A stretch of 62,130 nucleotides of DNA from Patescibacteria group bacterium (GCA_041671325.1 JBAZBR010000006.1:1-62130), one strand, 5' to 3'. Positions 6,916 to 55,262 are shown, counted from the stretch's first letter. Made by a program: numbers and translations. Notes: generated by a model not told the origin, from the sequence alone.

Positions 6916-7443
6916 CTAAATCTTACCAACGCTAACAGCGATACAGTCGCCTTTACGAAAATTCGCGAAGTGTTGGTATCCGCCAATTCCGGTAATTCCG
7001 AAATCATAGTACCTCAAACTAAGCGTAAATTTCCCTATTTTTGAATAAACGCAGGGAATTTCGTTCTCGTACTGAACTCTGTCTTCATCAAGCCGATTAT
7101 GCTTTGTCCGTATCTCGGGGTACCCCGCAATCACTGTTGAATGTTTGCGCATTTCTTTGGGGTACTGCTCAACGAGCGCAAATAGTTGCCTAAGACCGAT
7201 CTTGTACAATTTATTCTCGGCCAATATATTAAACGCTTGATCTACGGCAATTGTCGTATGCACTTTGATTAGTTTAATTCTTATTACATGTTTCCTTTTT
7301 ACTCTTTCAAAATGCCTAGCGATATTGTTAATTAGCTTTGGATCTGGTGATTCTAAAAAAAGCGGCAGATAGCTTTCGAAAGTTCGATTTGCTTCGACCC
7401 TGATCTTTAAAAAAGCCGCCTCTGAAAGAACGTTTAAGCTCAT
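6916..7443 (-). CDS. Hypothetical protein, paralog-like to 7502..8092
   Basis: 175 aa; SD AAGGAG 7 nt before ATG; segment GLRQLFALVEQYPKEMRK matches DLQELLAVGEQYPEEQRT of the neighbour. Confidence 0.6.
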   Translation of the reverse strand: MSLNVLSEAAFLKIRVEANRTFESYLPLFLESPDPKLINNIARHFERVKRKHVIRIKLIKVHTTIAVDQAFNILAENKLYKIGLRQLFALVEQYPKEMRKHSTVIAGYPEIRTKHNRLDEDRVQYENEIPCVYSKIGKFTLSLRYYDFGITGIGGYQHFANFRKGDCIAVSVGKI

Positions 7444-7501
7444 GGCTAATCTCCTTTTTCTGAATATTTAAGCAATAAAGAGTCTGCGAGTTTTAAACTT
7501 C

Positions 7502-8092
7502 CTAGCACTGATATTTAGGAACGGCAGCGAAACCCCATCCAAAGCTGTGCCAGCCATTTTCGGGATAGATCAAAGAAAGATTACGATGACCATGAATCCA
7601 AGTTTCCCCAGTGAGGAACGGGAATTCCTTGTCCCATTCCGAAGCAAGAGCAACAATACCGCAGGTTCTCTGCTCTTCTGGATATTGTTCACCTACAGCG
7701 AGGAGTTCCTGGAGGTCGGCGGGGCGGAGATTGCGCTCTCCTAATTCCTTAAGCACATCTCCTGTGCTCATTGATTTGTCAAAGTGCACCAAGATAATTT
7801 TGATCAACTCGGTGCCGGAACCTGTACACGGGAAATTTTTGTCGTTGATATCCGGATGCTTTGAATAGTATTTACCGGCGGCAATGCCGTCAGCAATCGA
7901 CCGATCGCGGTTAACCGCGACATCCAGAACTTTATCCTTGTCAGTGACAATACTGTCGAAAGGGTTTTTCTCCTTCAAGAATCGCTCCAACTGACTTGGT
8001 AATAGAATACGGTTCTGAAGTTTTTTACTAAGGTCTGCTAACATGCCAAGAACGTTACCCAGCACATCATCGACTTGTCCTTGCTTAACCAT
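7502..8092 (-). CDS. Hypothetical protein (LRPA-x-L-x-ELLA...QYP-x-EQR motif)
   Basis: 196 aa; SD AAGGAG 7 nt before ATG; no recognisable catalytic motif. Confidence 0.65.
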   Translation of the reverse strand: MVKQGQVDDVLGNVLGMLADLSKKLQNRILLPSQLERFLKEKNPFDSIVTDKDKVLDVAVNRDRSIADGIAAGKYYSKHPDINDKNFPCTGSGTELIKIILVHFDKSMSTGDVLKELGERNLRPADLQELLAVGEQYPEEQRTCGIVALASEWDKEFPFLTGETWIHGHRNLSLIYPENGWHSFGWGFAAVPKYQC

Positions 8093-8218
8093 GAGTAATC
8101 TCCTTCTTTTTAATATGTTTTGAAAATGAACCTAGTTTTCAGCAGTAACAAAAAATTATCGTACTTTGCTAAATATTCGTCAAAATACTCCAACATTTTT
8201 TCCAAAATAGTAGAAATA

Positions 8219-8247
8219 TTGACATAATTAACAAGGTGTTCTAGGGT
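8219..8247 (+). promoter_or_regulatory. Sigma70-type promoter of the TrmB-family gene
   Basis: TTGACA-17 nt-TAGGGT; the same -10 variant occurs at 34168. Confidence 0.5.
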
Positions 8248-8258
8248 TAGCTACTGTT

Positions 8259-9029
8259 TTGTTAAATATTTCGGACATTATGGTTATTCAAACTGACCTC
8301 CTAAAACTCGGTTTTAACGCCAGCCGCAGTGCGGTCTACCTGGCTTGTTTAGAGCTCGGCTCTTCCACGGTGGCAGATATAGCCAAAAAATCTGGGATTC
8401 GGCGAACCACGGCCTACCGCATCCTCGAGGAACTAGTCGAAGATGGCTTGGCCGAAGAAGATCTGACTGGCCCAATCAAACGTTTTACTGCCCAGCCTCC
8501 TGGCCAGCTTGTCCAGCTTTTAAACAGCAAGAAAAATCAGGCTGAACAGCTTCTGCCAGAGCTAACCAAACTATTCCACCAGACTTCAGAAAAACCCAAA
8601 GTGCGTTTTTACGCTGGCCTTCGGGGACTAAAGACTATGTTGGAAGACTCCCTGACTTCAAAGGAAAAACTGGTTCGTTCCTTTTCTCCGTTGACGACTG
8701 ACCTGACGGCAACTATGGGCCAAACCTACACTCGGCACTACATTCAGCAGCGAATTAAACTTGGGGTTGAGCGACACGCTCTTCGCCCCTACACCCAAGA
8801 TAAAATCACTTCTAAAGACTGGGAATTCCAAGCTAGTGACCCAAAGCTCAAGCGCCAAGTCCGTTTCTTGCCTGAACGTTTGACTTTCCGAACACCCATT
8901 CAAATTTACGATGATAAAGTAACTATCATGGATTTGGACCAGCAGTTCGGATTTATTATGAAAAATTCCGCCTTGGCAAATTTCCTCAAACAGATTTTCG
9001 ACATGCTCTGGAACGTGGCGGAAAAATGA
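8259..9029 (+). CDS. TrmB family transcriptional regulator (wHTH plus PLD-like domain)
   Basis: LLKLGF...VYLACLELG...IAKKSGIRRTTAYRILEELVEDGL; C-terminal IQIYDDKVTI; ATG at 8280 may be the real start. Confidence 0.88.
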   Translation: MLNISDIMVIQTDLLKLGFNASRSAVYLACLELGSSTVADIAKKSGIRRTTAYRILEELVEDGLAEEDLTGPIKRFTAQPPGQLVQLLNSKKNQAEQLLPELTKLFHQTSEKPKVRFYAGLRGLKTMLEDSLTSKEKLVRSFSPLTTDLTATMGQTYTRHYIQQRIKLGVERHALRPYTQDKITSKDWEFQASDPKLKRQVRFLPERLTFRTPIQIYDDKVTIMDLDQQFGFIMKNSALANFLKQIFDMLWNVAEK

Positions 9030-9054
9030 TATTCATCCAAAACAACAACTTATT

Positions 9055-53424: not shown

Positions 53425-53488
53425 ACAATACACAAGCTAATCTAAAACTAAAACCTTCCCTAACCAAAGTGATATACTAAAAACAAGT

Positions 53489-53773
53489 ATGACAATTTCG
53501 CTTTGGTTGCTATTAATCCCCTTTGGTTTGGTGCTAATAGTTTGGCTGTTTTTAAGCATTGCAGCAATTACTAAAATGCTGAGGTTTGGCTTTTTAAGCC
53601 GGACTGCGGTTATTTCCACGTTTATGTTTTTAGTTTTTGCAATTGCCAGTCTGACGATTTCAATCATCAGCTTAAGGCAGGTTAATTGGACGGCCGAATA
53701 TACCATTGGCACTCCAACCATCAACATACCCAACGCTAACAGCCTAAAGGATAAAATTCCAGGGTTACCATAA
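53489..53773 (+). CDS. Small two-TM hypothetical protein
   Basis: 94 aa hydrophobic ORF ending 2 nt before the next gene. Confidence 0.6.
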   Translation: MTISLWLLLIPFGLVLIVWLFLSIAAITKMLRFGFLSRTAVISTFMFLVFAIASLTISIISLRQVNWTAEYTIGTPTINIPNANSLKDKIPGLP

Positions 53774-53775
53774 CC

Positions 53776-54390
53776 ATGAAGATCCAGCCCACCATTCCAA
53801 ACATGTTGCCAGAAGAAAGAGTCATCTTAATGTTGCACCGCCACGGGTTTGTGGCTTTTCAGTTTGTCTTGGTCTATCTTTTTTTCGCCATTTTACCAAT
53901 CGTCGGTTGGTGGTTTTTGGGGGATAAGACCACGATTTTCCAAGACCCAACTAGTTTTGGCTATGCTTTGGTCGCCTTGCTTATTTCCGCCTATGCTTTA
54001 ATTTGGGTGTTGTTGTTTTTTGTTGCTTGGCTAAATTTCTATCTGGATGTTTGGATTGTGACCAACGAAAGAATCATCAACATTGTCCAACAAAGGCTTT
54101 TCCACCGCATGGTTTCTGAACAAAAACTTTATCGGGTCCAGGATGTTACTTGGGAAATGAAGGGCGTGGTCGCCAACCTGTTCAGGTTTGGCAATGTGCA
54201 TGTCCAGACTGCAGGCGAAGATGACCGCTTCACTTTTGAAAACATTTCCCAACCAGAAAAAGTCGCCCACGAAATCATGTCGCTTTTGGAATCAATTGAA
54301 AAGCAAATCGGCCTGGATAAAATGGCGGAAGTGGAGGGCGAAGTTGGTACCAAGGCAGAAATTAAAAAACCCCTGGGAAAAAGAAAATAA
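53776..54390 (+). CDS. Membrane protein with bacterial PH domain
   Basis: Two TM helices then WIVTNERII...RVQDVT...FRFGNVHVQTAG. Confidence 0.85.
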   Translation: MKIQPTIPNMLPEERVILMLHRHGFVAFQFVLVYLFFAILPIVGWWFLGDKTTIFQDPTSFGYALVALLISAYALIWVLLFFVAWLNFYLDVWIVTNERIINIVQQRLFHRMVSEQKLYRVQDVTWEMKGVVANLFRFGNVHVQTAGEDDRFTFENISQPEKVAHEIMSLLESIEKQIGLDKMAEVEGEVGTKAEIKKPLGKRK

Positions 54391-54394
54391 TAAT

Positions 54395-55072
54395 TCAAAC
54401 CAGAAGCTCGGTTAAAATTTTCAACCGGCTGGCTTGGGCGGCAAACGGCCCCCAGTAACCCTGCTGGCGGCTGGATTCCAAGACGACAAACATATTGTTC
54501 CAATCCGTATCAGAAAACTTCAGTTCTGATTTGGTCCTTTCCTCGTCAGTCAAAGCCATGGCCAAACCGATTTTAGCCACAAAGTCCCAATTGCCGTCAA
54601 CTTTTTCTAATTCCAAAGCCTTAATCACATTTTGCCAATCATCATCGGTCACTAGGCCTGGATGAAAGCGATCAGCGTCTGCGCCGCGTAAATGGTGGGC
54701 GTGAGAAATAAAAGGCGGCCAAGCTTTTATTTTTCGTAAATTATCAAGCTCATTAACCAGAGCTTGCCACAAATCATCAGGCACGACTAAAATTGCGCCC
54801 CTTGCCGGGTCCAGCAATTTCAAATGCGAAAGCCTGGCGCCGACCGATTGCCAATCTTCAACCTCTTGAAAATGTGAAAGTTCGTCAATCAAGGCGTCCC
54901 AATCCTGGTCAGTGATGGCAATTTTTTTATACCTAACTGGGTCAATCATGGCCAAGCGCGAGGCGTGCCAGGCAAAACCATGCCAATGCCGGCCGCTTGA
55001 AAAATTCGATAATTCCTTGACCATTAACTGCCATTCTTCCTCGGTAATTTGAACATCTTTAGTAAAAGACAT
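54395..55072 (-). CDS. Hypothetical protein made of five ~44-aa tandem repeats
   Basis: W6, L13 and W22 invariant in all five units; D36 and R39 in the four complete units. Confidence 0.7.
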   Translation of the reverse strand: MSFTKDVQITEEEWQLMVKELSNFSSGRHWHGFAWHASRLAMIDPVRYKKIAITDQDWDALIDELSHFQEVEDWQSVGARLSHLKLLDPARGAILVVPDDLWQALVNELDNLRKIKAWPPFISHAHHLRGADADRFHPGLVTDDDWQNVIKALELEKVDGNWDFVAKIGLAMALTDEERTKSELKFSDTDWNNMFVVLESSRQQGYWGPFAAQASRLKILTELLV

Positions 55073-55148
55073 ATGCTGAATTATATCTTGCTTGGGCTAA
55101 TAAACCAAGCAAAACCAACAGAAAAACAAAATAAGATCGGAGGTCTTT

Positions 55149-55262
55149 GTGAATACTATATTTATAGCTTCTTATGCCTTGGGAACATTTGTGGTTTTTC
55201 CGGTTTTACTCAAACTCATGTCCCTTGAAATGAAACCAATAAAACCAAAAACCCCAGTATAA
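55149..55262 (+). CDS. Small single-TM protein (37 aa)
   Basis: Not in ORF track; SD GGAGGT before GTG; MNTIFIASYALGTFVVFPVLLKLMSLEMKPIKPKTPV; stop lies in terminator AAAACCCC...GGGGTTTT. Confidence 0.45.
   Translation: MNTIFIASYALGTFVVFPVLLKLMSLEMKPIKPKTPV

Follow-up and report, generated by a model that had tools for sequence, protein, structure and literature searches.

In Bacteroidia translation is blind to the Shine-Dalgarno (SD) sequence, and rpsU, the gene for ribosomal protein bS21, is autoregulated, as described for Flavobacterium johnsoniae (Jha 2021 PMC7797042, McNutt 2023 PMC9976891, Naeem 2026 PMC13000453); among the genes of Flavobacteriales a strong SD is confined to rpsU (PMC9976891), and the bS21 of Bacteroidia has a less basic C-terminal part with a signature residue, Tyr54 (PMC7797042). 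Another pattern, group C of GeneMarkS-2, is represented by Actinobacteria and Deinococcus-Thermus, in which leaderless and SD-led starts are mixed (Lomsadze 2018 PMC6028130), and part of the Parcubacteria has lost the anti-SD motif (Tsurumaki 2022 PMC9297842). Here we analyze a 62,130-nucleotide (nt) stretch of DNA from a Patescibacteria group bacterium, hereafter the window, together with the rest of its genome. The bacterium is an ultra-small, uncultured, Kerfeldbacteria-like member of the Patescibacteria, and across its genome core and accessory genes can be told apart by the kind of start signal they carry: conserved genes nearly all start without an SD, and strong SDs mark genes that come and go among close relatives. 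Phage genomes are known for morons, additional genes that sit among conserved ones and bring a promoter and a terminator of their own. Genomes that are SD-poor, or that mix leaderless and SD-led starts, are already known; the separation of core and accessory genes by type of start signal is a new rule, and in our literature search we met with no paper that relates SD use to the core or accessory status of genes.

The window is contig C6 of a 1.27-Mb genome in nine contigs that is rated complete (G000). Its ValS shares 87% identity with the ValS of a metagenome-assembled genome of Candidatus Kerfeldbacteria, and the next relatives are Patescibacteria. Genes were called with a simple home-made caller, which combines a frame-specific, self-trained Markov model with gap filling, and sorted by tblastn (E < 1e-3) into core genes, conserved in a whole 1.19-Mb genome of the same class and another family (G024); genus-only genes; and genes without a homologue. 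The congener used was a whole 0.99-Mb genome (G002), and a member of the same family of which 22% is covered (G004) served for SD rates only. An SD was scored as GGAGG, AGGAG, GAGGT or AAGGA with a spacer of 4-11 nt upstream of the start, and the main test was limited to genes whose longest start is unrivalled within 45 nt, so that the choice of start was blind to the SD.

Start signals follow gene conservation

At unambiguous starts an SD precedes 14 of 365 core genes (3.8%), 18 of 133 genus-only genes (13.5%) and 61 of 202 genes without a homologue (30%; Fisher p = 3e-18); the chance level, taken before late in-frame start codons, is 1.8%. The contrast between orphan and conserved genes that the original prediction had drawn from the window sequence alone is thus a property of the whole genome. 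When any early start is allowed the rates become 11%, 19% and 45%, respectively, and SD-led genes are 8-10 times commoner among genes absent from the congener. After subtraction of the chance rate, about 185 genes of at least 80 amino acids (aa) are truly SD-led, some 14% of the genes of that length, and about 140 of these have no homologue in either relative. Pairing with the 16S rRNA tail at -8 kcal/mol or stronger is found in 213 start windows as against 73 mock windows. Spacers of SD-led starts peak at 5-6 nt, which like this excess suggests that the sites are functional, and in the orphan class complements of the 16S tail lie 5-9 nt before the start and are enriched over background, as in canonical SD-led initiation. 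The start codon is ATG in 92% of core genes versus 77% of SD-led genes.

The split persists among leading genes alone (SD in 5.3% of core genes versus 38.7% of those without a homologue, p = 2e-14) and among operon-internal genes (2.2% versus 11.8%), and is therefore not due to operon position; in a logistic model that includes G+C content (GC), length and operon position, the odds ratio for genes without a homologue relative to core genes is 7.7 (bootstrap 4.2-16.4). It repeats in G002 (3.5%, 10.4% and 30.1%; p = 9e-10) and in the partial G004 (6.8% versus 27.7%), and is weaker in G024 (3.0% versus 9.8%). The motif statistics and this gradient with conservation are direct observations on the genomes, as are the synteny slots and the inheritance of SDs within families described below. 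A depletion of SDs below chance in core genes, as in Flavobacteriales, was considered and rejected: the deficit is mild at -5 kcal/mol or stronger (61 versus 82) and vanishes at stronger thresholds.

The 3' end of 16S rRNA is GGATCACCTCCTTTCT in G000, G002, G004 and G024 alike, with the anti-SD core CCUCC intact, a point that the original prediction had marked for checking; the tail in G000 ends in ...CACCTCCTTTCT, so that a canonical anti-SD is kept even though most genes lack an SD. With CCUCC in place the ribosome should be able to pair with an SD and to read both kinds of start. The relaxed use of SDs is shared with those Parcubacteria that have lost the motif, another case among ribosomes of the candidate phyla radiation (CPR); unlike them, this lineage has kept CCUCC and uses it for one class of genes.

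Core genes have a start region of their own. Upstream of their starts G falls to 4-10% at positions -10 to -1, A rises to 45-54% at -6 to -4, and U occupies -1 in 63-64%. The S10-spc ribosomal protein cluster, about 25 genes, has no SD (pairing +0.8 to -6.2 kcal/mol), and its junctions have the form TAA-N4-7-ATG. A TANNNT hexamer stands at exactly -12 in 19% of leading core genes, compared with 3-5% in the background and 0% of SD-led genes. A -10 box at -12 to -7 is the geometry of leaderless mRNA, and by this geometry a subset of core genes is predicted to be leaderless, a subset that had escaped the original prediction. Window core genes illustrate the point:

52314-53351, plus strand: ruvB, SD-less core gene with TATAAT exactly at -12 to -7 (leaderless geometry)
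38437-39480, minus strand: tsaD, SD-less core gene with TATGCT at -12 to -7
35051-37648, minus strand: valS, SD-less core gene, duplex -3.0 kcal/mol
23849-26690, minus strand: dnaN and dnaA, both SD-less, +0.2 and -0.6 kcal/mol

The conserved genes that had been named as lacking an SD are borne out on both counts. Pfam identifies DnaA, DnaN, YidC, TsaE, TsaD, ValS, PepA, RuvB, RuvC, a class A PBP, a PilB-type ATPase, Hsp20, four GT4s and PGI among the window's core genes, and for the start regions of the named genes the duplex with the 16S tail is no stronger than -7.6 kcal/mol. The genome also encodes a four-domain bS1-like protein.

The genome resembles GeneMarkS-2 group C in its fixed distance, 6-8 nt in that group, between a -10 box and the starts of operon-first genes. 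In group C, however, operon-internal genes use the SD, whereas here internal core genes have one in only 2.2% of cases and the ribosomal cluster has none; SD use follows accessory status and not operon position.

Several further features of SD-less starts were noted. U at -1 precedes 63% of core starts versus 28% of SD-led ones (window examples at 52325 and 46060), and could mirror an extended pairing of the mRNA with the loop of the initiator tRNA. Strong promoter-like sites stand before the SD-less genes at 55279-57132 and 46061-46477 (Hsp20), where the -10 box ends 9-11 nt before the ATG, so that the leaders would be only about 2-5 nt long. The dnaA-dnaN pair at 23849-26690 suggests that the window probably spans the replication origin region.

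SD-led units and the slots that hold them

The fifteen orphan starts of the window at which an SD had been claimed all have one. Twelve sites are strong (AAGGAG, GGAGG, AAGGAGG or similar, 4-7 nt before ATG, GTG or TTG): with a spacer of 5-7 nt, AAGGAG, GGAGG or AAGGAGG leads the starts at 7443, 8092, 18396, 48946, 49432 (TTG) and 50375 on the minus strand and at 10282, 37798, 39791 (GTG), 40434 and 55149 (GTG) on the plus strand, and AGAGGTG lies 4 nt before 34204. Three sites had been called weaker, which fits the first two, at 29835 and 33513, weak or interrupted as they are; the third, at 33921, is an extended SD, AGAGGTGGTGAT, with a duplex of -16 kcal/mol. Three more SD-led starts, at 38010, 50052 (a 149-aa open reading frame, ORF) and 57264, add to that list. 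The four shortest ORFs (37-69 aa; starts 37798, 40434, 48946 and 55149) are putative genes only. The units are as follows:

6916-7456, minus strand: 175-aa ORF; AAGGAG at 7451-7456, spacer 7; no Pfam match and no homologue in G002 or G024
7502-8105, minus strand: 196-aa ORF; AAGGAG at 8100-8105; TTGACG-17-GATAAT about 60 nt upstream, 8183-8155
10189-10767, plus strand: self-contained unit; TTGACA-17-TATTAT (11/12 matches) at 10189-10217, GAGGAG at 10270-10275, 161-aa ORF from 10282 with 2 predicted transmembrane helices
17436-18587, minus strand: cassette with 299-aa ORF (17497-18396); promoter-like site 18587-18559, structured leader, AAGGAG at 18403-18408, terminator 17463-17436
29149-29848, minus strand: 228-aa ORF with 2 transmembrane helices; interrupted SD GAAAGGCGGA; G002 homologue, 29% identity; TTGACA-17-TAGAGT at 29908-29880
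32875-33588, minus strand: 194-aa orphan; weak SD AGAGGG; TTGACA-16-TAAGAT at 33588-33561; terminator 32902-32875
33700-33934, minus strand: 73-aa ORF behind the extended SD just described; genus-restricted
34193-34599, plus strand: 127-aa ORF; AGAGGTG; terminator 34572-34599; G002 orthologue (63% identity) keeps the SD
37785-38246, plus strand: two small ORFs, 69 and 78 aa; AAGGAG and GGAGG; slot between valS and tsaD
39777-40312, plus strand: 173-aa ORF; GTG start, AAGGAGGT; G002 orthologue (61% identity) keeps the SD
40360-40583, plus strand: 49-aa putative ORF; AAGGAGG; promoter-like site 40360-40387
48681-50386, minus strand: slot between a VanW-domain gene and pepA; SD-led membrane ORFs of 41 aa (48821-48946), 131 aa (49037-49432), 149 aa (49603-50052) and 107 aa (50052-50375)
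55139-55262, plus strand: 37-aa ORF; GGAGGT; overlap with the terminator hairpin of the core gene next to it makes it doubtful as a gene
57250-57816, plus strand: 176-aa ORF; AAGGAG, GTG start at 57264, then a terminator; absent from G002; beyond the range covered by the original prediction

Some of these units come with a promoter-like site of their own, 45-160 nt upstream, and a terminator of their own. Such signals had been ascribed to most of the orphans, which seems too generous: promoter-like sites precede about six of the 15 units, with agreement at 9-11 of 12 positions (at least 10 in five of them), and about six units have a strong terminator. Total counts of promoter- and terminator-like sites in the window range from the shuffled level to about 3 standard deviations above it, and single matches are weak evidence. 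The description of the class as small, often membrane, proteins did not survive, as a transmembrane helix is predicted for a fraction of 0.37 of SD-led orphans versus 0.35 of core genes, and the SD-led class also includes enzymes of 400-670 aa, a pilin, a second SSB copy, a sigma factor and Hsp20. Among 20 small ORFs of the window searched against Pfam, 15 gave no match, the matches of four stayed under the curated cut-off, and one, at 41760-42017, encodes a GIY-YIG nuclease. We note also that the ORF at 7502-8092 has a weak match (35% identity) in a distant genome, and that the adjacent orphans within 6916-8092, each with its AAGGAG, are distant tandem paralogues (31% identity over 52 aa, E = 2e-6).

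SD-led genes are scattered along the genome, singly and in runs, and their presence varies among close relatives, a comparison that the original prediction had proposed for the orphans. Between anchors that are collinear in G002, 140 slots hold extra genes in G000; 36 of the corresponding G002 slots are empty, 37 have no ORF of at least 80 aa, and 67 contain other ORFs, often SD-led. The valS-tsaD slot in G002 holds a single unrelated SD-led ORF of 120 aa, and the slot between the VanW-domain gene and pepA holds unrelated ORFs. The best blastp scores between same-slot proteins of the two genomes have a median of 16.2 bits, as against 16.4 bits for random slots (p = 0.24), and only 5-7 of 131 pairs reach 25-30 bits; since the scores are at the level of random slots, the contents appear to have been replaced and not to be diverged copies of one another. 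Of the SD-led genes that do have a G002 orthologue, 40% have an SD there too, compared with a baseline of 6.7%, and these orthologues diverge fast (median identity 50% versus 70%). At the level of the class, retention in 7 of 59 G000-G024 orthologues, against a baseline of 7%, is not significant, orthologues being few.

The 299-aa family of the window provides a detailed example. The gene is absent from both congeners searched (G001 and G002) and present at 52-55% identity in other genera or families, where its neighbours are unrelated to those in the window. All five homologues checked have the SD and a conserved leader, which with the window copy makes six genomes of several families. The structured leader (18409-18500, minus strand, and loci L084-L088) has a first hairpin of the form GCCAC-N7-GUGGC and a second that abuts the SD, and the first carries compensatory A-U to U-A changes in three genomes; an Rfam search with the leader returned only chance miRNA-type matches far below threshold, and no family. 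The family is rare, with only 14 protein clusters in 5.8 billion sequences, and the sole source name that gives a phylum is Patescibacteria. A phage origin was considered for it and rejected, there being no match in 50,697 phage records.

A concentration of SD-led genes occurs elsewhere in the genome:

C3:34685-50259: GC-rich island (0.45-0.53) of 16 kb, all genes on one strand; 13 of 15 genes SD-led; absent from both relatives

Judged by their N-termini, the island genes include those for a PP2C phosphatase, a kinase, a nicotinamidase, NMNAT, a NUDIX protein, NadE and nicotinate phosphoribosyltransferase, the last alone having been checked; its closest source-named relatives are in other Patescibacteria (65-83% identity). 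Taken at the same level, the island combines NAD salvage and synthesis enzymes with a kinase/PP2C phosphatase pair.

Variable slots, non-homologous contents and a family whose SD and leader recur in unrelated neighbourhoods support the separate, flexible gene pool that was one of the two explanations first offered. We think it probable, with a good deal of room for doubt, that the SD-led genes serve as portable expression cassettes and belong to a flexible gene pool, common to Patescibacteria, that turns over fast. The genome has two designs of gene start, which track conservation. In the first, used by nearly all conserved genes, there is no SD, and mRNAs would be leaderless, joined within operons by TAA-N4-7-ATG, or provided with short, G-poor and A-rich leaders ending in U at -1. 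In the second, a leadered mRNA would present a strong SD 5-6 nt from the start. Cassettes of the second design would be self-sufficient, since promoter, leader and SD together would make expression independent of the landing site, and would be gained, lost and swapped in slots between core genes, while long-resident genes would run on the SD-free mode of the lineage. A few conserved genes (rpsU, pilin, VirB2-like, sigma factor, Hsp20 and the second SSB copy) would keep an SD for control or high output. That the SDs are in use and that portability is the reason for keeping them we infer, together with the mode by which cassettes would move. The resemblance to morons lies in single-gene units, some of them with putative expression signals of their own, placed between collinear conserved genes and variable among close relatives; unlike morons, these units lie in a chromosome and not a prophage, the one family tested has no phage match, and there are no mobility genes nearby.

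Several observations count against portable cassettes. About half of the genes without a homologue have no SD, among them the large Pfam-bearing enzymes of the window at 9055-10173 and 10810-12099, and a canonical promoter occurs within 150 nt upstream of only 17% of SD-led leading genes genome-wide. Neither an integrase nor a cassette-moving repeat was found adjoining the units of the window, and composition shows no foreign origin there, GC being 0.451 for SD-led genes and 0.452 for core genes. The gene calls and starts come from our own simple caller, the class without a homologue is defined by two full relatives and tblastn at E < 1e-3, and SD use, transcription starts and leaderless status are all read from sequence.

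bS21 and the conserved genes that keep an SD

Few conserved genes are SD-led; named by eye, they include a type IV pilin, two VirB2/TrbC-like proteins, a sigma-70-like factor, Hsp20, an MreC-like protein and a second copy of SSB. The two SSB genes differ in their starts:

C4:15655-16074 and C4:112670-113101: SSB paralogues; no SD in the rpsF-ssb-rpsR operon copy, an extended SD, GAAAGGGGGTG, before the one that stands alone

The operon ssb had been a candidate for the SD-led copy and was rejected, the SD-led gene being the paralogue elsewhere. The genes for bS18 and bS6 are both present at C4:112424-113663.

The gene rpsU stands out among ribosomal protein genes. Its product matches bS21 structures in the PDB (E ~1e-6), and bS21 is present in 118 of 121 genomes of the class. 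The leader, AAGGAGGTG, is followed by a GTG start and is identical in G002. Pairing with the 16S tail reaches -16.3 kcal/mol, whereas the S10-spc cluster (~25 genes), rpsF and rpsR are at -6.2 kcal/mol or weaker, so that rpsU is the sole ribosomal protein gene with an extended SD (-13 kcal/mol or stronger) among about 28 examined. A strength of -13 kcal/mol is reached or exceeded by rpsU in 27 of 29 loci taken from different families of the class (median -16.8), and its start codon is GTG or TTG in 19 of the 29. We note that bS21 (C1:9022-9309; loci L228-L257) is 77-100 aa long and has a conserved, class-specific C-terminal extension, K(E/D)YLRKIGKL(D/E)E. The net charge of the tail is +7 to +14, and the aromatic residue of the motif could not be equated with Tyr54.

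The likeness to Bacteroidia is considerable: the anti-SD is intact, SDs of conserved genes are at chance level, starts are G-poor and A-rich, and an extended SD of rpsU conserved across the class is the sequence signature by which bS21 autoregulation is recognized in Bacteroidota (PMC9976891, PMC7797042). We found no paper in our literature search tying that bS21/rpsU signature to Patescibacteria or the CPR. It raises the alternative that the other explanation first offered, a dedicated SD-gated channel, is correct and that bS21 is the gate: as in Bacteroidia, where bS21 gates the anti-SD, the anti-SD would be concealed in mature ribosomes, SD-led mRNAs would be read by those without bS21, and the SD-led accessory genes and rpsU would be co-regulated. 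Chance-level SDs in core genes despite an intact anti-SD, the strength of the rpsU site relative to the other ribosomal protein genes examined, and its conservation and frequent non-ATG starts across the class speak for such gating, as does agreement with the sequence criterion applied to Bacteroidota (McNutt 2023, PMC9976891). Nonetheless we consider it unlikely. In Flavobacteriales rpsU stands alone (PMC9976891). The present genome, from a different phylum, has about 140 genes in excess of the mock window and more than 140 genes besides rpsU with good SDs, and by pairing strength rpsU comes only about 19th genome-wide and is not the strongest. The bS21 tail is strongly basic with a motif of its own, unlike the less basic Tyr54 tail of Bacteroidia (PMC7797042). 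A further difference from Bacteroidia is that a subset of core genes appears leaderless. The optimally spaced strong SDs of the pilin, SSB copy and Hsp20 genes also fit ordinary SD-competent ribosomes better.

The wider proposition, in which complete ribosomes of the class would serve SD-less core mRNAs and bS21 would set anti-SD availability and thereby control the SD-led accessory pool, is to us equally doubtful. If true, it would amount to a ribosome-level switch over horizontally exchanged genes and would explain why SD-poor lineages retain the anti-SD.

Origin of the SD-led genes and consequences of the split

The SD-led orphans might instead be old positional residents that have evolved beyond recognition, or newborn genes, which keep an SD for want of a native SD-free context. 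The faster divergence of SD-led orthologues in G002, the core-like GC of the window orphans and the low hexamer coding scores of orphans would all follow. Same-slot ORFs, however, are as dissimilar as random pairs, with just the few pairs at 25-30 bits noted above; 36 slots are plainly empty in G002, and the 299-aa family, 52-55% identical in other genera and families, is missing from both congeners and sits in unrelated neighbourhoods. We regard residence or birth in place as somewhat less likely again than bS21 gating.

A third alternative treats the SDs as fading relics of recent transfer out of SD-using donors, without a role here and decaying with residence (amelioration). It accommodates the gradient with conservation depth (30%, 13.5%, 3.8%), the higher GC of SD-led orphans genome-wide (0.459 versus 0.424) and the GC-rich island on C3. 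Composition was itself examined as evidence of foreign origin; it holds genome-wide and on the C3 island and fails for the window's own orphans. Decay without function is harder to reconcile with spacers that are sharply optimal at 5-6 nt, with a gene family in which SD and co-varying leader have both persisted in six genomes from several families, and with the 40% of orthologues that still have the SD after about 30% protein divergence; moreover, every relative found with a phylum label belongs to the Patescibacteria. A relic therefore seems improbable, slightly more so than residence. It is very hard to believe that the split is an artefact of orphan starts picked for a preceding SD or of spurious ORFs, for although the first starts were picked by eye and four of those ORFs are putative and only 37-69 aa long, the effect holds with the longest unambiguous start chosen without regard to the SD and against mock windows and late in-frame starts, and spurious ORFs would dilute the orphan signal rather than create one.

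If the split is general, the flexible gene pool and a few control genes would be what needs the anti-SD, which would account for its retention in SD-poor lineages. An SD would also serve as a sequence-only flag for recently exchanged genes in unculturable organisms, and the system offers a test case for the expression of transferred genes in a host whose own genes use another mode of initiation. Start calling in CPR genomes needs two models: for the nicotinate phosphoribosyltransferase of the C3 island, an identical database protein is given as 400 aa, and the SD-led start and most homologues give 420 aa.

Two minor observations concern individual genes. At 41760-42226 in the window, the 85-aa GIY-YIG nuclease gene (Pfam E = 8e-13) adjoins a sequence resembling the 3' end of a tRNA. 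At C5:4531-6882 an SD-led gene, also present in G002, encodes a 783-aa secreted protein whose C-terminus resembles a sorting domain of the type IX secretion system (T9SS), which is odd for a member of the CPR.

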